Assembly (NCBI GenBank): GCA_009015555.1
Contig: GCA_009015555.1_3613.1
Strand: one strand, 5' to 3'
Length of the DNA: 64,000 bases
Origin: a phage
The stretch's first letter is position 1; each line of letters begins with the position of its first letter. The translations under genes were made by a program, and so were the position numbers. This document shows, one piece after another, positions 23,885 to 59,024 of the stretch. Below the pieces are notes generated by a model. It did not search any database, was not told the DNA's origin, and saw only the letters and a list, made by a program, of their open reading frames with translations.

Positions 23885-24397
23885 TTATTTGGGAGAGACC
23901 CAGTAGAAAGGCTTCTCCAGATTCAGCTTTTTCAGTGGGTCCCAGATGAAATATGCGTACCCGGCACCGTCTGTTTTACCATCCTCGGTGAAGGATGGTC
24001 GCTTCGACAACGTGATCAGGTGGTCAAGGGGGTACTGTTTCCAGAACTCCTCTCGACGCATACTCTCCAAGAACCCCAGGCGCAGCAGCATGATTACGAC
24101 ATCTGCATCTTTATGGGCCTTCTCCACAAACTCTTGGGCCAAGGAGTAGGGCGGATTGGTGATAATGCAATCCACACGATCGTAAGAAGTATTAAGGTAA
24201 TCAACACCGTCCCTGATCTCTCCCCACGCTGACCCGATCGGCAGTTCGTTGTAAAAGCGCCCGGAGGCGCGACAAGGTTCCATGTAAGTCCAGCCCTTGC
24301 GGATTGGAATCAGGTCGAACAGACATTTTACTGCCCACTCAGGAGTTTCGTATACATCGAATGCCTTACGTTCGCCCTTCGGCTTCAGTGCCGCCAT
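23885..24397 (-). CDS. small DNA N6-adenine methyltransferase-like protein (NPPY motif)
   Basis: Track ORF; motif IV IITNPPY, motif-I-like EPCRASGRF. Confidence 0.55.
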   Translation of the reverse strand: MAALKPKGERKAFDVYETPEWAVKCLFDLIPIRKGWTYMEPCRASGRFYNELPIGSAWGEIRDGVDYLNTSYDRVDCIITNPPYSLAQEFVEKAHKDADVVIMLLRLGFLESMRREEFWKQYPLDHLITLSKRPSFTEDGKTDGAGYAYFIWDPLKKLNLEKPFYWVSPK

Positions 24398-49292: not shown

Positions 49293-49494
49293 GAGGGTGC
49301 AGATCCATATCCACAGCCAAGAACGGATTCTTACGCGCCCAGCGCTCTTCTTTAGTCTCCAGCCCGTAGTTAAGATAGGACAACAACCAACGACCCAGCA
49401 CTATCGCCAACACAATGATTACGGCAAACACAACCAGATCCAATTCGCGTTGATTAAGACCGAAAGCCACAATATCATTCACACACTGTTTCAT
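49267..49494 (-). CDS. small membrane protein (75 aa)
   Basis: Track ORF. Confidence 0.5.
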   Translation of the reverse strand: MKQCVNDIVAFGLNQRELDLVVFAVIIVLAIVLGRWLLSYLNYGLETKEERWARKNPFLAVDMDLHPRGKKRDVW

Positions 49495-49775
49495 CAGATC
49501 ATCTCCATCGTAATCAGTACATTGTCGAGGTCATCAGCGTTAAGCTGGAGTTCAGGCTTCATACTATCTTCCACACGGTGATAAATCAACCCCTTTTCCA
49601 CATATTTGATCATCACCTCGTAATATTTCCCCAACAGGGTGTCCCATCCACACTCGTAAACAGACACCATACAGACTTTCAGGCCAGCTTTTGCTGAGTG
49701 CCATGCCTCACGCACAGCTTCCAGATGGGCTAATTCCAGTTCATCAATTTTATTACGCTGCTTATTACTTAACAT
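49494..49775 (-). CDS. hypothetical protein (93 aa); first gene of leftward block
   Basis: Track ORF; RBS GAGGG; promoter upstream. Confidence 0.55.
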   Translation of the reverse strand: MLSNKQRNKIDELELAHLEAVREAWHSAKAGLKVCMVSVYECGWDTLLGKYYEVMIKYVEKGLIYHRVEDSMKPELQLNADDLDNVLITMEMI

Positions 49776-49814
49776 TCTATAACCCTCATACGGTTGTCTC
49801 GTTTCAATGTGTGC

Positions 49815-49843
49815 ATTCTATGATCCAATGATCCTCTTGTCAA
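49815..49843 (-). promoter_or_regulatory. sigma70-like promoter driving the leftward gene block (TTGACA-17-TAGAAT on minus strand)
   Basis: Plus-strand ATTCTA and TGTCAA read as -10/-35 on minus strand with 17-nt spacer. Confidence 0.5.
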
Positions 49844-49859
49844 TACTTTAAATTTTAAA

Positions 49860-50010
49860 TTTTTCATGTAAGATCTATATAAAGATCCTAAAGATCAATA
49901 GGAATCTTCTATTGTTTTCTTGTTTTTAATAATTATTATGAATGTATATGAATAATAATTATAAGATCAATAATTTATGAGTGGAACGAATAAATTATAA
50001 GATTAATAAA
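49860..50010. repeat. AT-rich region with reiterated (T)AAGATC(A)ATA motifs and clustered GATC sites
   Basis: AAGATCTATATAAAGATCCTAAAGATCAATAGG, TATAAGATCAATAA, TATAAGATTAATAA. Confidence 0.45.
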
Positions 50011-50139
50011 ACCGTAGCCCGGAGGGCGAGCGTAGCGAGGTTTATAGATTCTATTATTACTTCGTGTGCCTTTCAGGGCTACATGGTTGACAACCGATTT
50101 GATTAATGAAACACTGGGTAGGGTTTCAAAGGAGGGTAT

Positions 50140-50508
50140 GTGAAGGATTTTGTTGTTCCAGAGGGTTCTTTTGTAAGCCTCCCTACTAAGTGGGGCTTCG
50201 ACTTGCCTGCTGAAGACCTGAAGCGGATGTTCTTGTTACATTTCCGATTCAAGTATTTTGCAGAGCAAGCGTTTCAGAGTGGTGAAGACGTTAGGCGTTG
50301 TTACTATGAGTCACAGGAGACCATGTGTCGCCTGTTTGGTATGTCTGAAGCATCAAGGACGAAGGTTGGAAAGTTTCTCAAGCGAATGGAGGCATCGGGC
50401 CACATTTCCATCATACGTGAGAAAGTAATGCTGTACGGTTCAATGAAGCCACGGCACTACATTGTGGTCAATGACCCTGTGCTATTGGAAAGGTATGGTC
50501 TTTCTTAG
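50140..50508 (+). CDS. hypothetical protein, possible winged-helix DNA-binding protein (GTG start)
   Basis: Track ORF; RBS AAGGAGGG; first rightward gene after AT-rich region. Confidence 0.5.
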   Translation: MKDFVVPEGSFVSLPTKWGFDLPAEDLKRMFLLHFRFKYFAEQAFQSGEDVRRCYYESQETMCRLFGMSEASRTKVGKFLKRMEASGHISIIREKVMLYGSMKPRHYIVVNDPVLLERYGLS

Positions 50509-50550
50509 ACTATCTGACTGAATCTTGATAAAATGGGGGCGGAGGAACTC

Positions 50551-51201
50551 ATGAACGAAATGCTTATGCTTGGGCAGGCCAAAGCTAAAGCTGGCCTGGA
50601 TATTGATTTTGAAGACGCCGAGATTGGCAGCACCACGATTGTGGACAAGAACGGACATCCTTTCACACTCGTTGGTACTATCGCGACTGGTGGTGGGGTA
50701 GTCGAAGACCCCGAGGTAGGGAAGTGCTTCTACTTCCCCGGTACGGGATACTTCGAAACCCCTATGGTAAAGGACCTTCAACTCGCTGGAGTACCTGTCA
50801 TGATCGAGGCGGTATTTAAGTGGGACGGTGCCGCAGGAGGGTCTATCTGGGAGACTGGGAACTACCCCAGTGGACGACCACCAACACCCGGCATTTGCCT
50901 TAGTGTTGGTCAATACCCTGCTACGTACATCCAGTATTTCATGATGTATACCAACGGGTCTTGGGGCCGTGGCCTACCTCCAGCTACAACCTTCACCGGG
51001 GAATGGGAGACTGTAACCTTCCAACGGTCAAATGATGGAACGGGACCAATGGTTGTTTATCGCGACGGTGCCGAGTTCTCCAGGGTTGCCTTGGGTCCAA
51101 GCCCGATCGGTAATGGAAGCAAGCTGTCGGTTGGCGGGTCGTACACATACGGTGCCTATTGGAAGGGACGCCTGAAAAGTCTTAAAATTACACCACTCTA
51201 A
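50551..51201 (+). CDS. hypothetical protein with lectin/LamG-like C-terminal pattern (tentative)
   Basis: Track ORF 50533..51201; start at ATG after GGAGGAA. Confidence 0.5.
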   Translation: MNEMLMLGQAKAKAGLDIDFEDAEIGSTTIVDKNGHPFTLVGTIATGGGVVEDPEVGKCFYFPGTGYFETPMVKDLQLAGVPVMIEAVFKWDGAAGGSIWETGNYPSGRPPTPGICLSVGQYPATYIQYFMMYTNGSWGRGLPPATTFTGEWETVTFQRSNDGTGPMVVYRDGAEFSRVALGPSPIGNGSKLSVGGSYTYGAYWKGRLKSLKITPL

Positions 51202-51203
51202 CA

Positions 51204-51234
51204 AAAGGCCCTTGACGGGGCCTTTTTCTTTTTG
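51204..51234 (+). terminator. rho-independent terminator
   Basis: AGGCCC-TTGAC-GGGGCCT followed by TTTTCTTTTT. Confidence 0.55.
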
Positions 51235-51269: not shown

Positions 51270-52160
51270 ATGATTCGTGCATATTTAGGCGGAAGTCAGT
51301 TGGACATCGAGTTCAGCACATTTGCCGGGGGCGAGAGAAACGTCCTCATCAAGGGTTTCCAATGGCCCAGTCCGTTCAATGCGGATCTGAAAGAGAAGAT
51401 GCCAGAAGGTAAAGACCTTGTTGTCTACGCCCATGTTGACAGTTCAGATGCCATCATGGACCTGCTGCTGTTTACCGACGCATTCAACCGCATGGGTCGA
51501 GGCACAGGCAACCAGGTGAAGAAGGTCTGTTATGTGCCATACATCCCGTATGCCCGTCAAGACCGAGTGATGGTTCCTGGAGAACCGCTGTCGTCGGCAG
51601 TGTTTGGAACACTTATCAACCTGTGTGGATTTGACCGTATCATTGTTGATGACCCGCACTCAGATGTGTCTCCGTCACACATCAAGAACGTTGCCATTTT
51701 CGAACAATATGAACTGGCCTTGGATATTCTTGGCCCGGGCTTCTTCGACGATGCCGTTATCGTAGCTCCGGACGCCGGGGCAATCAAGAAGGTCACGAAG
51801 TTGGCTCAGAAGGTCAACCACCGTGAAATCGGGGTTGGGACCAAGCATCGTGACCTTATGACCAATAACATCACTGACACGACTTATGCCGGGCCGGATG
51901 TTAATGGTAAGCGTGTCATCATGGTTGATGACATTTGCGACGGAGGTCGTACATTTATCGAGCTTGGTAAGGTTCTCCGTGCCAATGGTGCGAAAGAGGT
52001 TGTTCTGTACACCACGCACGGGATTTATTCCTACGGCGCGGATGTGTTTAAGGACGTTATTGATGAGGTTTACTCCGCCTATCCGTGGATGAAGAACCTG
52101 GAAGGCCGAAACGAAAATAATATTTTCAAATCTGTTGACAAGATGGTTGAGTTCAAGTAA
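51270..52160 (+). CDS. ribose-phosphate pyrophosphokinase (Prs)-like enzyme; candidate ADPR-pyrophosphate synthetase of a NAD+ reconstitution pathway
   Basis: PRTase type I motifs YARQDR, DPHS, VIMVDDICDGGRT; RBS GAGAGGAGAG. Confidence 0.85.
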   Translation: MIRAYLGGSQLDIEFSTFAGGERNVLIKGFQWPSPFNADLKEKMPEGKDLVVYAHVDSSDAIMDLLLFTDAFNRMGRGTGNQVKKVCYVPYIPYARQDRVMVPGEPLSSAVFGTLINLCGFDRIIVDDPHSDVSPSHIKNVAIFEQYELALDILGPGFFDDAVIVAPDAGAIKKVTKLAQKVNHREIGVGTKHRDLMTNNITDTTYAGPDVNGKRVIMVDDICDGGRTFIELGKVLRANGAKEVVLYTTHGIYSYGADVFKDVIDEVYSAYPWMKNLEGRNENNIFKSVDKMVEFK

Positions 52161-54002: not shown

Positions 54003-54006
54003 TTTC

Positions 54007-54030
54007 AGCCGCCCTTCGGGGCGGTTTTTA
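54007..54030 (+). terminator. rho-independent terminator
   Basis: GCCGCCC-TTCG-GGGCGG followed by TTTTT. Confidence 0.6.
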
Positions 54031-54047
54031 ACTATCCGGAGGATGAA

Positions 54048-54206
54048 ATGAAACTGAATGAATCTCAGTATCTGGCGGCAAGAAAGGCGTTTGTGGAAAA
54101 TTCCGTATTCGATAATATCCGTATGTGGGTGGAAGATGGGCAAATGTCAGAGGATGAGCTTCGGGTGTTGATTGGAGAGATCTTCGCTCCCGTGGAGGTA
54201 GAATGA
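54048..54206 (+). CDS. small hypothetical protein (52 aa, MKLNESQYLAARKAF...)
   Basis: RBS GGAGG; ATGA overlap with next ORF; below track cut-off. Confidence 0.35.
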   Translation: MKLNESQYLAARKAFVENSVFDNIRMWVEDGQMSEDELRVLIGEIFAPVEVE

Positions 54207-54394
54207 GAAACCCAGTTGCACGAAACGACTTTAACCGGGCAGCAACGCACCCAGATCGCTCTAAGCGGCCTCAAAAGACTGTAGACGAGGGTTTGCTCGA
54301 CTACTTTGCAGAAAACGCTGAGAACGTCGCATACAGCGAATATGAACGTGCCTCTACAAACGCTCCGGGCGCTCCCCTTCCACCCGGGCGTTGA
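54203..54394 (+). CDS. hypothetical protein (63 aa)
   Basis: Track ORF. Confidence 0.4.
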   Translation: MRNPVARNDFNRAATHPDRSKRPQKTVDEGLLDYFAENAENVAYSEYERASTNAPGAPLPPGR

Positions 54395-54419
54395 CTATCA
54401 TTAAGTCCTCCAGTAAAAT
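54391..54419 (+). promoter_or_regulatory. sigma70-like promoter (TTGACT-17-TAAAAT)
   Basis: Upstream of ORF 54454. Confidence 0.4.
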
Positions 54420-54453
54420 GACCATATCACTTGATTAACTTACTGTTGGACTT

Positions 54454-55477: not shown

Positions 55478-55553
55478 GCTGGATTAGCTCAGTAGGTAGA
55501 GCGCCTCACTTGTAATGAGGATGTCGCGGGTTCGATTCCTGCATCCAGCACCA
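55478..55553 (+). tRNA. tRNA-Thr (anticodon TGT)
   Basis: Cloverleaf by hand: acceptor GCTGGAT/ATCCAGC, loop CTTGTAA, T-loop GGTTCGATTCC, encoded CCA. Confidence 0.8.
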
Positions 55554-55559
55554 GATCAT

Positions 55560-55636
55560 GCAACGTTGCCGGAGTCTGGTAACGGCTCTCGCTGCAAACG
55601 AGATGAGCACTGGTTCGAATCCAGTACGTTGCTCCA
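55560..55636 (+). tRNA. tRNA-Cys (anticodon GCA)
   Basis: Acceptor GCAACGT/ACGTTGC, loop CTGCAAA, T-loop GGTTCGAATCC, CCA. Confidence 0.8.
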
Positions 55637-55637
55637 A

Positions 55638-55714
55638 GCGCCTTTGGTCCAATTGGTAGAGGCACTACATTCAAAATGTAGGGGTTCCCAGTTCGAATCT
55701 GGGAAGGCGCACCA
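55638..55714 (+). tRNA. tRNA with Leu anticodon CAA but short (5-nt) variable arm; identity uncertain
   Basis: Acceptor GCGCCTT/AAGGCGC, anticodon stem CTACA/TGTAG, loop TTCAAAA, T-arm CCCAG-TTCGAAT-CTGGG, A73, CCA. Confidence 0.55.
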
Positions 55715-55730
55715 AAATTTATGTAACCTA

Positions 55731-55759
55731 TTGACATAGTGTAATTATACTGCTAATAT
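55731..55759 (+). promoter_or_regulatory. sigma70-like promoter (TTGACA-17-TAATAT)
   Basis: Consensus -35, good -10, upstream of ORF 55786. Confidence 0.5.
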
Positions 55760-55785
55760 GGATACACTAATTCAATGGGGGCATT

Positions 55786-56160
55786 ATGAGCAAGGCTGCG
55801 ATTGTAACTCGTAAGCGTGGTCGCCCAAGCAAAGAAGAGAGCACAGCAATCGCCCTTGAAAAGGCAATGCTTGATCTCCGAGGCGAATTGGCCCGTCTGA
55901 CGCCGAAGGCCATTCATACTCTCGAAAACCTGCTCACAACAGGCACAGAGAAAGTGAAGGAAACCACGGCGAAGTATATCCTTGAGCAGGCGAAAGAGGT
56001 TAACAACCTCTATACTGAAGAGGATAACGAAGACGACGCAGCAGGCGGCACAACATCTGCCTCTTCTGAAACTCACGCTGGTTCTTCTGACGAGATGAAA
56101 AATGCCATCCCGTTGACAACCCAGATTCGTGAGTATAAAGCAGTAGGCGAAGATGATTAA
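55786..56160 (+). CDS. small basic/acidic protein with AT-hook-like RKRGRPSK motif
   Basis: Track ORF; own promoter and terminator inside tRNA cluster. Confidence 0.55.
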   Translation: MSKAAIVTRKRGRPSKEESTAIALEKAMLDLRGELARLTPKAIHTLENLLTTGTEKVKETTAKYILEQAKEVNNLYTEEDNEDDAAGGTTSASSETHAGSSDEMKNAIPLTTQIREYKAVGEDD

Positions 56161-56163
56161 CTG

Positions 56164-56190
56164 GAAGGCTCCCGAAGGAGCCTTTATTAG
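56164..56190 (+). terminator. rho-independent terminator
   Basis: AGGCTCC-CGAA-GGAGCCT then TTTATT. Confidence 0.5.
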
Positions 56191-56325
56191 AAGTTCTCTT
56201 TTGACGGGCACTTGTTAACGACCCGCAGAATGACGACGGTGTACAACGGCGTTTGATGGCGAGGAAGGTCTATAGGGATCAGCGCAGATCCTTGGATGTC
56301 AGGTGAGCCGTACAAAAGAGAATTT

Positions 56326-56413
56326 GGGGAGTTATTTCCGTAGAGGTAGCGGTGCAGACTGTAAATCTGTTGTCATTGCGACTCGGGTGGTTCGACTCCA
56401 TCACTCCCCACCA
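56326..56413 (+). tRNA. tRNA-Tyr (anticodon GTA), long variable arm
   Basis: Loop CTGTAAA, variable arm GTCATTGCGACTC, T-loop GGTTCGACTCC, CCA. Confidence 0.8.
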
Positions 56414-56419
56414 AATTAT

Positions 56420-56514
56420 AGTAGGATGGCTGAGTGGCTTAAAGCAGCATCTTGGAAAGGTGTCGGATCAGGTAACCCCTGGTCCCGGGAGTTCAAATCT
56501 CCCTCCTACTGCCA
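56420..56514 (+). tRNA. tRNA-Ser (anticodon GGA), type II
   Basis: Acceptor AGTAGGA/TCCTACT, D-loop GAGTGGCTTAA, loop TTGGAAA, long variable arm, CCA. Confidence 0.75.
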
Positions 56515-56518
56515 GACC

Positions 56519-56595
56519 GGATCGTTAGCTCAATTGGTTAGAGCAAGGGACTTTTAATCCCGAGGTTCGGGGTTCGAGTCCCTGACGGTCCACCA
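56519..56595 (+). tRNA. tRNA-Lys (anticodon TTT)
   Basis: Acceptor GGATCGT/ACGGTCC, loop CTTTTAA, T-loop GGTTCGAGTCC, CCA. Confidence 0.8.
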
Positions 56596-56760
56596 GAAAG
56601 GAAGAGGGTCCAAGCTGGTAATGCGAGAGGCGAGTCCTCAGACCAAAGCCCAGATGGAGGCCACCCTAAAGTCGTCCAACCGAAGGTCCCTGATTGAGTA
56701 ATACTTCCCCGCTTGTCGGGTACAGTTCTCAGTCACACCGGAAGGGGCGCACCCTATAAT

Positions 56761-56836
56761 TGACGGTGAGCATATAAGGACATGCGGGGGCCTGTTAAGT
56801 CCAGGATAGCTGGTTCGAATCCAGTACCGTCAGCCA
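56761..56836 (+). tRNA. tRNA-Asn (anticodon GTT)
   Basis: Acceptor TGACGGT/ACCGTCA, loop CTGTTAA, T-loop GGTTCGAATCC, CCA. Confidence 0.75.
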
Positions 56837-56945
56837 ATTTGGTTCCGACAAGGTGACGGCGCACCCCGGAGCGACGCTGAAAGATGCAGGCCGACGAACA
56901 CATACGTGTACTTAATCAATAGTCATTGCGATGGCTATTCGTTAA

Positions 56946-57023
56946 GTCCTGGTAGACAAACTGGATAAAGTCACCACCCTTTCAAGGTGGGGTTTGAGGG
57001 TTCGATCCCCTCTCAGGACGCCA
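56946..57023 (+). tRNA. tRNA-Glu (anticodon TTC)
   Basis: Anticodon stem CCACC/GGTGG, loop CTTTCAA, T-loop GGTTCGATCCC, CCA. Confidence 0.75.
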
Positions 57024-57117
57024 ATCTTTTAGGTCGGTAGATTAATGAGCAAAGGCCGCTCGCTGGATTCCAACCCCAGTTCAAGGCGTTCGATTCGTCA
57101 CCTTCCTGCCAAATTCA

Positions 57118-57193
57118 GGTCCTATGGTATTAGCGGTAAACATACTCGCCTGTCACGCGAGAGTCACGGGTTCGAATCCCGTTAGGACCGCCA
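57118..57193 (+). tRNA. tRNA-Asp (anticodon GTC)
   Basis: Acceptor GGTCCTA/TAGGACC, loop CTGTCAC, T-loop GGTTCGAATCC, CCA. Confidence 0.8.
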
Positions 57194-57200
57194 CTTCAAA

Positions 57201-57275
57201 TGGGGATTAGCTCAGGGGTAGAGCGCACAACTGATAATTGTGAGGTCGGTGGTTCGAAACCACCATCCCCAACCA
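57201..57275 (+). tRNA. tRNA-Ile (anticodon GAT)
   Basis: Acceptor TGGGGAT/ATCCCCA, loop CTGATAA, T-loop GGTTCGAAACC, CCA. Confidence 0.8.
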
Positions 57276-57345
57276 AACAGCCCCTCCCGGGATTGGACCG
57301 GGTTAACGGCAATCGCACACTGAGGCGTCTTCCGGGGGAACAATA

Positions 57346-57422
<77 letters not shown>

Positions 57423-57428
57423 AATTAT

Positions 57429-57503
57429 TGCGAGGTAGTTCAGCGGTAGAACAGGGGTTTCATACGCCTCATGTCGGCAGTTCGATTCTGCCCTTCGCAA
57501 CCA
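57429..57503 (+). tRNA. tRNA-Met (anticodon CAT; initiator/elongator/Ile-lysidine not resolved)
   Basis: Acceptor TGCGAGG/CTTCGCA, loop TTCATAC, T-loop AGTTCGATTCT, CCA. Confidence 0.7.
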
Positions 57504-57509
57504 AATCAT

Positions 57510-57587
57510 GCTCCAGTAGCCCAATTGGTAGAGGCACTTGATTTAGGATCATGTCAGCGATGAGTTCGAATCTCTCCTGGAGTACCA
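57510..57587 (+). tRNA. tRNA-like gene with Leu anticodon TAG, short variable arm and weak T-stem; identity uncertain
   Basis: Acceptor GCTCCAG/CTGGAGT, D-arm CCAATTGGTAGAGG shared with 55638 tRNA, loop TTTAGGA, A73, CCA. Confidence 0.45.
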
Positions 57588-57593
57588 CATAAA

Positions 57594-57667
57594 GCGGGCA
57601 TGGTATAGTGGTTGTGCCTTAGCCTTCCAAGCTAATGAGTCCGGTTCGATCCCGGATGTCCGCTCCA
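57594..57667 (+). tRNA. tRNA-Gly (anticodon TCC)
   Basis: Acceptor GCGGGCA/TGTCCGC, stem TTAGC/GCTAA, loop CTTCCAA, T-loop GGTTCGATCCC, CCA. Confidence 0.8.
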
Positions 57668-57740
57668 ATTCACGGTGAGTCACTGCCGTTAAGTGTGAAG
57701 TTAAAAATGCCCGTGGTGATCGGGTTATCTCACCCAGTGT

Positions 57741-57816
57741 AGGGGATTAGTTTAATTGGTAAAACATCGGGTTTTGATCCCGACATCGCGAGGTTCGAAT
57801 CCTCCATCCCCCGCCA
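57741..57816 (+). tRNA. tRNA-Gln (anticodon TTG)
   Basis: Stem TCGGG/CCCGA, loop TTTTGAT, T-loop GGTTCGAATCC, CCA; 1-72 is A-C mismatch. Confidence 0.7.
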
Positions 57817-57898
57817 CATTAATGCTCATTAGCTCTTGTCAGTGGAACTCGAACCCTTAGAGCAGGCGACACAGACGTGTGTTTTAGTGAGCATCAAT

Positions 57899-57974
57899 GT
57901 GGCCTTAATTCAGCAGGTAGAATCCCCGGTTGTGAACCGGGCAGTCGTGGGTTCAAGTCCCACAGGTCACCCCA
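57899..57974 (+). tRNA. tRNA-His (anticodon GTG)
   Basis: Acceptor GTGGCCT/AGGTCAC, stem CCCGG/CCGGG, loop TTGTGAA, C73, CCA. Confidence 0.8.
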
Positions 57975-57978
57975 ATCT

Positions 57979-58071
57979 GGAAGATAGGGCGTAGTGGTAC
58001 GCACCCGGATTTGAACCCCGGCCCGCTGTGGCGACCCCACGGTGATAGTTCGACTCTATTATCTTCCGCCA
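57979..58071 (+). tRNA. tRNA-Ser (anticodon TGA), type II
   Basis: Collinear with bacterial tRNA-Ser(UGA): acceptor GGAAGAT, loop TTTGAAC, long variable arm, ...TTCC-G-CCA end. Confidence 0.7.
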
Positions 58072-58092
58072 CCCCTGATCATAAGGCAAACT

Positions 58093-58785
58093 ATGTTAGA
58101 AATGTTAACAGTGGGTAAATACACCCCTAGTCCTATAATTTCTAGCCCTATGGATGCTTATTTTGAGGGCGAGAGGAATAATAAATACGGCACTGTTGAG
58201 TGGGTTGTTCCTCAAGGCGTCACCTCAATCTGCTGTGTAGTGATAGGCGCAGGATCTTCTGGCAGAAGCGGCGGTCTTTCTTGGAGAAACAACATTCCAG
58301 TTACACCTGGTGAAAAACTTAAAATGCAGGTTAACTCCACAGCCAGCGCCCTCTTGAGAGAGACAACTATCCTTTGTGCTGCCCAGTGTGGCGGCAACGG
58401 AGGAAAAACATATAACTCTGTGAACGACGGTGGAGGCAATGCTGGACAATCACCACATGGTAGAGGTGGTGCTGGCGGCTACACCGGGAATGGTGGTGAT
58501 GGGCATACGTTCACAGGTGGTCCAGGACCAGGGTCCCCAGGTTCAGGTGGCGGCGGCGGCGGAGGCGCAGTTGTGTATCTGAACGGATCATTGACACCAA
58601 CTGTCTGCGGCGGAGTCGGCATGTATGGACAGGGGTCGAATGGTGGCGCTGATAACAGCGCCGGATATCCAGGCTCCGGCGGTTCTGGAACAAGATACGG
58701 AAGAGCAGTCGATGGTTATGGTGTTGTCAGGGTTGTGTGGGGAAATTATTCATTCCCAACAAATGCCCCGAGACCGAAATCCTGA
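58093..58785 (+). CDS. glycine-rich repeat protein (GGxGG tracts, poly-Gly run) embedded in tRNA cluster
   Basis: Track ORF 58042..58785; start at ATG after AAGG just downstream of tRNA-Ser. Confidence 0.5.
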   Translation: MLEMLTVGKYTPSPIISSPMDAYFEGERNNKYGTVEWVVPQGVTSICCVVIGAGSSGRSGGLSWRNNIPVTPGEKLKMQVNSTASALLRETTILCAAQCGGNGGKTYNSVNDGGGNAGQSPHGRGGAGGYTGNGGDGHTFTGGPGPGSPGSGGGGGGGAVVYLNGSLTPTVCGGVGMYGQGSNGGADNSAGYPGSGGSGTRYGRAVDGYGVVRVVWGNYSFPTNAPRPKS

Positions 58786-58856
58786 TAGGGATGGTCCCTA
58801 CGAGGATCGTCTTTTGCTCAGTGGTACTCAGCATTTACTTAGTATTCAAACAATAT

Positions 58857-58943
58857 AGAAGAGTGGCGAAATAGGTAGCCGCACCGGACTGCTAATCCGG
58901 GGTCCTTCGGGGCCTGAGAGTTCAAGTCTCTCCTCTTCTGCCA
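58857..58943 (+). tRNA. tRNA-Ser (anticodon GCT), type II
   Basis: Acceptor AGAAGAG/CTCTTCT, stem CCGGA/TCCGG, loop CTGCTAA, long variable arm, CCA. Confidence 0.75.
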
Positions 58944-58948
58944 AGCAT

Positions 58949-59024
58949 GGAACTGTAGCTCAGTTGGTAGAGCGGTTGCCTGAAGAGCAGCGCGTCAGCG
59001 GTTCAAATCCGTTCAGTTCCACCA
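58949..59024 (+). tRNA. tRNA-Phe (anticodon GAA)
   Basis: Acceptor GGAACTG/CAGTTCC, D-arm TAGCTCAGTTGGTAGAGC, loop CTGAAGA, T-loop GGTTCAAATCC, CCA. Confidence 0.8.

Follow-up and report, generated by a model that had tools for sequence, protein, structure and literature searches.

A conserved AT-rich spacer with predicted divergent promoters, and a possible replication origin, at a transcription switch of a Certrevirus phage

The DNA analysed here is a 64,000-nucleotide stretch of a phage genome (contig GCA_009015555.1_3613.1; hereafter the window), and the element under study is the 364-bp intergenic spacer at positions 49776-50139, which lies between a leftward and a rightward gene block. 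Over positions 49400-50600, the window matched Cronobacter phages CR3 and PBES 02 at 98.7-98.8%, and 20 further records of the genus Certrevirus, which belongs to the Vequintavirinae, the rV5-like myoviruses, at 86-96%. In CR3, the counterpart of the spacer is the gap between gp253 on the minus strand and gp254 on the plus strand. We conclude that the spacer is very probably a conserved bidirectional promoter region, in which two predicted divergent promoters of the host type, PL and PR, are placed 243 bp apart. PL would drive gp253 and the DNA-metabolism block, and PR would drive gp254, the genes for nicotinamide adenine dinucleotide (NAD) salvage, the tRNAs and then the virion genes. More tentatively, we propose that the block of 18% GC between the two promoters, which is unique in the genome, is a replication origin similar to ori-lambda or to the origins of iteron plasmids. 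The coordinates of the features are collected in Table 1.

An earlier reading, made from the sequence only, had pointed out a consensus leftward promoter, TTGACA-17-TAGAAT, and our position-weight scan bears this out: PL agrees with the consensus at 11 of 12 positions, has the best score of the region (16.4) and is located about 40 nt from the start codon of the gp253-like gene. Both of its hexamers are invariant in an alignment of 10 Certrevirus genomes, and two GATC sites (49822, 49830) are contained in its spacer. The A/T tract upstream of PL is 88% A+T, the highest value among the 28 TTGAC-type sites in the window, holds 2.4 tandem copies of TTTAAAT, and resembles an UP element, as which it may function. 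For the rightward genes, the same reading had seen no obvious sigma70 promoter. This claim is not supported, since a predicted promoter of this type, PR (TTGACA-17-TGa-AACACT), is present about 25 nt before the start codon of the gp254-like gene and is conserved in position in every related lineage compared. Its TTGAC and TG.[AC]A[AC]ACTGG motifs were kept in all 10 aligned genomes, even in those with about 50% divergence around them. Near-consensus hexamers, with a spacing within the 16-18 nt of sigma70 promoters, are found on each strand, upstream of the first gene. Further plus-strand sites of the type TTGAC-N16-18-TAnnnT were identified at 51212, 52135, 54391, 55162 and 55731.

The CB7 paper describes sigma70-like early promoters of Certrevirus with the pattern AAAA-N3/4-TGTTGAC-N17-19-TATAAT, at 13-21 sites per genome (PMC7344957). 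PL shares with this class the A-rich upstream tract, the TTGACA hexamer and the 17-nt spacer, but has TATTGACA instead of TGTTGAC, TAGAAT as the -10 hexamer and the two GATC sites in its spacer. The AT-rich block, PR and the palindrome next to it are not described in the main text of that paper. The authors of the phiTE study were unable to place promoters, and we found no transcript data for any phage of the Vequintavirinae.

The promoter pair was also identified outside the genus. In PVP-SE1, W70, Hena1, Av-05, Kashira and FBKp34, a leftward TTGAC[AT]-16/17-TAnnAT promoter adjoins the left gene and a rightward TTGACA promoter is located 25-50 bp before the gp254 homolog, so that the position of the pair is conserved in 16 genomes from seven lineages. 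The depositors of FBKp34 had independently annotated promoters at both of the corresponding positions. Homologs to gp254 are present in 74 phage records. In all of six distant relatives, the homolog heads the rightward block and follows an AT-rich spacer, about 270-680 bp long, from which the genes diverge, and PRPP synthetase is the next gene in five of the six (not in W70). Homologs to gp253 head the leftward block in W70, PVP-SE1, Hena1, Kashira and FBKp34. Judged from these sequence comparisons, the layout recurs across the Vequintavirinae and in one phage of the Stephanstirmvirinae, and is older than the genus.

The description of the spacer as a switch between leftward and rightward genes is in agreement with the open reading frames, the GC skew and the CR3 annotation. 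On the leftward side, a minus-strand block of about 45 kb includes genes for DNA ligase, exonuclease, thymidylate synthase and ribonucleotide reductase. On the rightward side follow gp254, PRPP synthetase, nicotinamide phosphoribosyltransferase, 18 tRNA genes, spanins, terminase and virion genes.

The sequence-only reading had further noted the AT-richness of the region, its AAGATC words and its clustered GATC sites, all of which were recovered. The GC content falls to 0.18 at 49851-50000, the lowest value in the window; across the 64 kb, 150-bp segments have a mean GC content of 0.51 (standard deviation 0.049), and the second-lowest value is 0.31. The homologous spot in CR3 is the single GC minimum in 144.9 kb (0.19, with the next at 0.32). 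The AT-rich block is not a general trait of the divergent promoters of this genome, since the other divergent switch in CR3 (69005-69128) has an ordinary composition, with 124 bp, a GC content of 0.40 and one GATC site.

Within the AT-rich region, AAGATC is present at 49870, 49882, 49891 and 49963, and AAGATT at 49999, which means that 4 of the 20 forward-strand AAGATC words in the 64 kb fall in the spacer. The six GATC sites are located at 49822, 49830, 49872, 49884, 49893 and 49965. Only 0.25 sites would be expected from the local composition, and dinucleotide shuffles of the 364 bp gave a mean of 1.55 (P ~0.001), but the raw count of six per 150 bp merely ties with two clusters in coding regions of the window. 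Single GATC sites have been gained and lost among the aligned Certrevirus genomes, and WWAGATCWT words are significantly enriched in the homologous spacers of W70, PVP-SE1, Av-05 and FBKp34. T-rich TTGTTTT(T)ATTGTTTT runs also recur in the relatives W70 (e.g., TTGTTTTTATTGTTTTT), PVP-SE1 and Hena1; the TTGTTTT repeats of the window match the oriC 13-mer GATCTnTTnTTTT weakly, with two mismatches. GATC is over-represented across the window as a whole (408 sites, as compared to 305 +/- 15 in shuffles). According to the CB7 paper, CB7 DNA is probably Dam-methylated (PMC7344957). The homolog at 23885-24397 of a gene annotated as a DNA methyltransferase in CR3 had no family match, and a phage Dam gene was not confirmed inside the window.

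About 200 bp of non-coding DNA lie between the promoters, and the alignment of the 10 genomes shows that 49776-50046 is almost invariant. Identity to the window is 91-98% over 49500-50040, as compared to 45-88% in the flanks. The divergence of the block 49776-50046 from the relatives (K = 0.007-0.098), set against the synonymous divergence of the gp253-like gene (dS 0.135-0.313, with a nonsynonymous divergence, dN, of 0.014-0.041), indicates a rate of evolution in the block of 0.09-0.39 times the synonymous rate of its neighbour; for PRPP synthetase, dS is about 1.2-1.5 against most relatives. A coding function of the block is excluded by uncompensated single-base indels in P7_Pc, PcCB7V and phiTE. 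A candidate small protein of 41 amino acids (49981-50106) was rejected, as indels break its frame in the same three genomes and the sequences diverge after 50046. The region is thus under strong selective constraint. In CR9, F1M1E and POP15, similarity stops abruptly at 50046/50047, which marks a mosaic junction. The palindrome, PR and gp254, to the right of the junction, belong to a module of their own, in which protein identity falls to 51-61%.

Two further elements were identified in the right half of the conserved block. Each copy of the imperfect direct repeat follows the pattern TTATGA..GAATAA..ATTATAAGATYAATAA, with ATTATAAGATYAATAA at the end, and contains a -10-like TAAGAT. The core 17-mers at 49957 and 49993 are 94% identical, 36 nt apart and include the last two AAGAT words. 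The sequence AATTATAAGAT was found nowhere else in the 64 kb besides the direct repeat, and W70 carries a 31-nt analogue in two copies. The GC-rich island that follows has no substitutions in the 10 Certrevirus genomes and a single 1-nt insertion in P7_Pc (GGATGGGC); analogous GCGAG..CGAGC islands are present in W70 and Kashira.

An exact-pattern scan with the GC island identified a partial copy of the region in an element of integrative appearance, a 21.9-kb IMG/VR contig (IMGVR_UViG_2531839180_000003, here L030). Positions 7112-7260 of L030 correspond to about 49933-50088 of the window, excluding the GATC triplet; 156 bp are shared with CR9 at 86%, and the inner 91 bp at 98.9%. The copy is located in a 1.7-kb spacer together with palindromic repeats of the FBKp34 type, and is followed by two winged-helix genes that match PHROG replication-initiation families. 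L030 also encodes an integrase-like gene and an AAA_15/AAA_21 ATPase, and the 6.4 kb around the copy had no other match to any phage or plasmid record. Since the right half of the block has been copied in an otherwise unrelated element, it is a discrete cis-module, and L030 may be a satellite that copies a cis-site of its helper. In a relative of L030 on the chromosome of Pectobacterium odoriferum NCPPB 3839 (locus L033, 2030-2600), a different cassette was observed at the same position. It consists of two AT-rich repeats of about 60 bp with AAAGATCTTTTAT, followed by a GC-rich island, and thus has the same grammar in another sequence.

The AlphaFold2 model of gp254 (predicted local distance difference test score 91) shows a winged helix-turn-helix fold, in which both the N-terminal helix and the beta wing are long. 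The weak matches of the model in BFVD include several phage entries named "replication initiator" and "replication protein O". The protein itself belongs to no curated family beyond phrog_8453. We scanned 30 members of the gp254 family against PHROGs, and found that 21 matched phrog_270 and 21 matched phrog_428, both "replication initiation protein" (best E-values 2e-7 and 9e-6), while 14 matched phrog_678, "O-like". Transcription-regulator families were matched by at most six of the 30, all with E >= 0.2. By these matches, the family is most similar to the origin-binding domain at the N-terminus of replication initiators from phages and plasmids. For gp254 itself, generic winged-helix matches were nearly as good as those to initiators. 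A full hidden Markov model search of 1.84 billion representatives recovered only 23 proteins. Three distant metagenomic relatives of 233-253 amino acids (P0043, P0045 and P0046) have a gp254-like domain that continues into an acidic tail with DTVPF, DWVPF or DPPF at its end, which we take to resemble the C-terminal tip of SSB. The SSB tip recruits replication proteins. For gp253, no match was obtained in Pfam, NCBIfam or by sequence in the PDB, and no DNA-binding fold was detected.

The palindrome directly upstream of the PR -35 hexamer varies together with the gp254 allele, and a related half-site element (GTAGCC/GGGC) is located at 50013-50030. The palindrome is a probable binding site of gp254, as an operator or an iteron. 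We further consider it rather probable that gp254 acts as a dimeric winged-helix protein that binds this palindrome, possibly also the element at 50013-50030, and at least autoregulates PR.

Repeats of 22-26 nt in two to three copies are located directly upstream of the rightward -35 hexamer in PVP-SE1, Hena1, Av-05 and FBKp34. In PVP-SE1, the repeat ATTCC..GGGAATAATTAG (dyad ATTCC..GGGAAT) is present in three copies, as is the repeat of Hena1; the repeat TGTCCCC..GGGGACA of Av-05 and that of FBKp34 are present in two. Dyad symmetry is clear in Av-05 and PVP-SE1. In rV5, we observed a repeat locus in the spacer between ORF78 and ORF79 (DQ832317, about 64930-65307), which has no feature annotation in the GenBank record. 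Here, a small winged-helix gene of 116 amino acids, ORF79, adjoins four palindromic repeats (TGTCCGTATCACGGACA; GTGTCCGTATCACGGACAGTTA) spaced 21-22 bp apart just downstream of the gene. Beyond the repeats come an AT-rich stretch, in which there are two GATC words (GGATCTAGT and TAGATCTTT on the plus strand of the record), and then a GC-rich segment; the repeats and these two parts together span about 64940-65260. By analogy, this locus looks like ori-lambda; it differs from the spacer studied here in that its repeats are downstream of the gene and in that it is not at a strand switch. The transposon-free 2.5-kb spacer of Bas54 (bioRxiv 10.1101/2025.11.20.689424) was set aside as another locus, a convergent region elsewhere in the genome.

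The sequence-only reading had named two candidate roles for the region, a replication origin and a binding region for a phage transcription factor, and both gain indirect support here as possibilities. If the AT-rich block is a replication origin, the initiator-like winged-helix protein bound beside it, together with negative supercoiling from the diverging promoters, could separate the strands of the AT-rich stretch. Through the GATC words, this opening, or the use of the promoters, would respond to DNA methylation, and the repeats and the GC island might be further protein- or primer-related sites. In favour of an origin, the site is the only one below 0.2 GC in the 64-kb window and in the 145 kb of CR3, the cumulative GC skew of the window has its minimum at the spacer, an AT-rich stretch of the kind that is unwound in origins of the iteron or lambda type is present, and the neighbouring gp254 is initiator-like in its family matches. 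The repeats beside AT-rich, GATC-rich stretches in PVP-SE1, Hena1, Av-05 and FBKp34 point in the same direction, as does the rV5 locus as a parallel in architecture. In ori-lambda, the N-terminal winged helix of the O protein binds dyad-symmetric repeats (four iterons) beside an AT-rich stretch in a transcription-dependent system. The spacer is similar to this in its candidate dyad-symmetric sites by the AT-rich stretch, its nearby promoters and the family matches of gp254 to the "O-like" PHROG. It is unlike ori-lambda in that the site is intergenic and precedes the gene instead of being contained in it, with one palindrome as compared to four iterons; gp254 has only 122 amino acids and, unlike lambda O, no C-terminal domain for the recruitment of a helicase loader. 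The order of an AT-rich stretch with clustered GATC sites, repeats, an inverted repeat at the promoter and a winged-helix gene is shared with iteron plasmid origins (P1 oriR, pSC101, RepA_N; structure 4pta). Unlike these, the spacer has no DnaA boxes, its repeats are few and heterogeneous, and it belongs to a lytic phage of the 150-kb class that encodes its own polymerase, primase-helicase and helicase.

A number of observations weigh against an origin. The switch in GC skew falls at the same place as that in transcription, and skew changes in rV5 follow transcription (PMC3606486). The replication genes are about 80 kb distant from the spacer. No conserved DnaA box (TTATNCACA) and no IHF site were found in the region, which therefore does not resemble a DnaA-dependent, oriC-like origin despite the clustering of GATC sites. 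The window contains one palindrome, one half-site element and one two-copy repeat at this place, rather than an array of at least three regularly spaced direct repeats. In PVP-SE1 and Hena1, the copies flank the promoter and the third overlaps the ribosome-binding site, which fits autoregulatory operators equally well. No homolog to gp254 was detectable in rV5, and homology of the spacer to the rV5 ORF78/ORF79 locus was rejected, as there is no similarity at the DNA level and the protein comparison gave an hhalign E-value of 0.025 at a probability of 2%. The gp254 protein is a single domain without a C-terminal helicase-loading part, its Pfam matches and the Foldseek matches of its model in the PDB are generic winged helices only, and the window protein itself matched an initiator family with a weak score (E 0.089). 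Inheritance of the AT-rich block and of the GC island is linked to gp253 and not to gp254, whose identity falls to 51-61% in genomes in which the AT-rich block has remained invariant. Unwinding elements normally require AT-richness and not a conserved sequence, and the constraint on the block must therefore have another source than unwinding. The weakest points of the origin proposal are that no iteron array is present in the lineage and that the block is independent of the divergence of gp254. The authors of the rV5 study were unable to locate an origin from the skew (PMC3606486), and our literature search found no replication origin for this group of phages.

Several of these observations would suit a purely transcriptional switch, which is the main rival to an origin and which we consider rather unlikely. 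The block would then be a platform for PL and PR, bound by gp253, gp254, H-NS, Fis or SeqA/Dam, and such factors would time the DNA-metabolism block relative to the rightward block with no role in the initiation of replication. The small gp253-like and gp254-like genes point away from the block in every lineage, in a cI/cro-type arrangement, and gp253 is co-inherited with the block. This reading is also supported by the palindromic repeats around the PR core and ribosome-binding site in PVP-SE1 and Hena1, by the GATC sites within the PL spacer, by the TAAGAT in three of the AAGATC words, which is the -10 hexamer of predicted promoters elsewhere, and by the annotation of the gp254 homolog in PcCB7V as a "transcriptional regulator". 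However, the other divergent promoter region of the genome needs just 124 bp of ordinary composition, and about 180 bp of nearly invariant sequence are far more than two promoters and one operator require. Moreover, the gp254 family matches replication-initiator and not regulator families, and gp253 lacks a detectable DNA-binding fold. Even if its role is only regulatory, the block is the most constrained non-coding element of the genome. There is a low probability that the region encodes a small non-coding RNA or a 5' leader with secondary structure. Its rightward transcription would begin at a weak promoter in the 36-nt repeat, with TAAGAT (49998-50003) as a -10-like element, and would run across the GC island and a hairpin at 50014-50084. 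The plus strand at 50008-50086 folds at -31.3 kcal/mol (z = -3.7; z = -3.6 in CR9), the inner stem GCGAGGU/ACUUCGU is preserved through GC to GU changes in CR9, F1M1E and POP15, and, in our reading, the start of the GC island is close to the predicted +1 in both the window and W70, and in Kashira it directly follows the -10 hexamer. On the other hand, only one predicted pair has changed on both sides, the outer stem is gone in F1M1E (z +0.5), no equivalent fold is found in W70 or Kashira, no terminator was identified and the upstream promoter candidates are poor. The best matches in a covariance-model search of the region against Rfam were far below the gathering threshold. A conserved hairpin at 50014-50084 was thus rejected, being significant in the window and CR9 and lost in F1M1E, W70 and Kashira.

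We also compared the spacer to the pac site of P1, at which headful packaging is initiated and which consists of clustered GATC hexamers (TGATCA/G) in two groups around an IHF site inside pacA, with cleavage that depends on Dam methylation. The GATC words of the spacer are likewise in two groups (TGATCC twice, AAGATC three times), the site is unique in the genome, and a part of the region has been copied in a possible satellite element. The genomes of phiTE and its relatives are circularly permuted and terminally redundant, and a possible pac fragment has been reported (PMC3475682). A packaging site is nevertheless improbable. The spacer is located about 9.7 kb upstream of the gene for the terminase large subunit and not inside any terminase gene, its words differ from the P1 hexamer, there is no IHF consensus, the part copied in L030 leaves out the GATC triplet, and gp254 has no match to a small terminase. 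An antitoxin mimic of the pseudo-ToxI type, similar to the escape locus of phiTE, was suggested because the repeat unit has a spacing of 36 nt and is present about 1.5-2 times, and because the window is closely related to phiTE. This idea is refuted and has virtually no probability: the phiTE locus is elsewhere, in the tRNA region (phiTE 106714-106772) and about 7 kb rightward from the counterpart of the spacer, its sequence shows no relation to that of the spacer and has no match in the whole window at up to three mismatches, and no Rfam family, including ToxI, matched the region at E <= 10.

Returning to the proposed origin, an extended version would join the block and gp254 into one origin module of the Vequintavirinae and related phages, which we regard as unlikely as a whole. 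In this extension, the origin-binding protein would be a stand-alone domain similar to the N-terminal part of lambda O, two diverging promoters would open an origin that is gated by GATC methylation, and the right-hand 150 bp (repeats, GC island and palindrome) would be a portable cis-module. Integrative, satellite-like islands in hosts of the Pectobacterium/Cronobacter type would carry copies of it, each version specific to its helper, as a means of responding to an infecting Certrevirus or of exploiting it.

The rV5-like phages are widely used in collections for phage therapy and biocontrol, and their origin and promoter layout have been undefined. The analysis provides a concrete, testable candidate, a unique block of 200 bp with a DNA-binding protein of 122 amino acids, and a map of conserved bidirectional promoters. 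Both should be useful for genome engineering, models of gene timing and the search for satellites.

Table 1. Features in and next to the spacer at 49776-50139 (window coordinates).
Feature	Position	Strand	Description or basis
gp253-like gene, 93 amino acids	49494..49775	-	head of leftward block; equals CR3_gp253; phrog_12865
PL, predicted sigma70-type promoter	49815..49843	-	TTGACA 49843-49838, 17 nt, TAGAAT 49820-49815; position-weight scan
A/T tract upstream of PL	49844..49868	-	GAAAAATTTAAAATTTAAAGTA on minus strand; sequence, tandem-repeat search
Three GATC words, then GAATCTTCTATTG	49869..49911	.	TAAGATCTATA, AAAGATCCTAA, AAAGATCAATAG; word and shuffle counts
T-rich repeats	49911..49927	+	ATTGTTTTCTTGTTTTT (TTGTTTT x2)
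Imperfect direct repeat	49936..50009	+	copy 1 49936-49973 (38 nt), copy 2 49975-50009 (35 nt)
GC-rich island	50012..50040	+	CCGTAGCCCGGAGGGCGAGCGTAGCGAGG; hairpin GCCC-GGA-GGGC, CGTAGC twice; 10-genome alignment
Imperfect palindrome	50065..50083	.	TGTGCC-TTTCAG-GGCTACA; inverted-repeat search
PR, predicted sigma70-type promoter	50087..50115	+	TTGACA 50087-50092, 17 nt, TGa + AACACT (-10 at 50110-50115); position-weight score 12.6
Inverted repeat	50107..50128	.	TGAAAC..GTTTCA; overlaps PR -10 and start region
Shine-Dalgarno sequence	50130..50135	+	AGGAGG; precedes gp254-like GTG
gp254-like gene, 122 amino acids	50140..50508	+	GTG start; head of rightward block; winged helix-turn-helix

Some differences in gene content were observed to the right of gp254. 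In the window, CR3 and PBES 02, but in none of the seven other Certrevirus genomes of the alignment, gp254 and PRPP synthetase are separated by a gene for a LamG/concanavalin-like "virion structural protein" (CR3 gp255; window 50533-51201), which has the appearance of an insertion. The 720-bp "DNA methylase 2" gene of CR3 (gp258), which follows the phosphoribosyltransferase gene, appears to be missing from the window because the corresponding segment, 54003-54453, has only about 450 bp and no open reading frame of at least 70 amino acids. The 18 tRNA genes are located at 55478-59024. The gene for PRPP synthetase (51270-52160) has a dS of 0.02-0.03 against CR8 and PcCB7V, as compared to 1.2-1.5 against other relatives, which indicates a recent gene exchange between otherwise diverged genomes.

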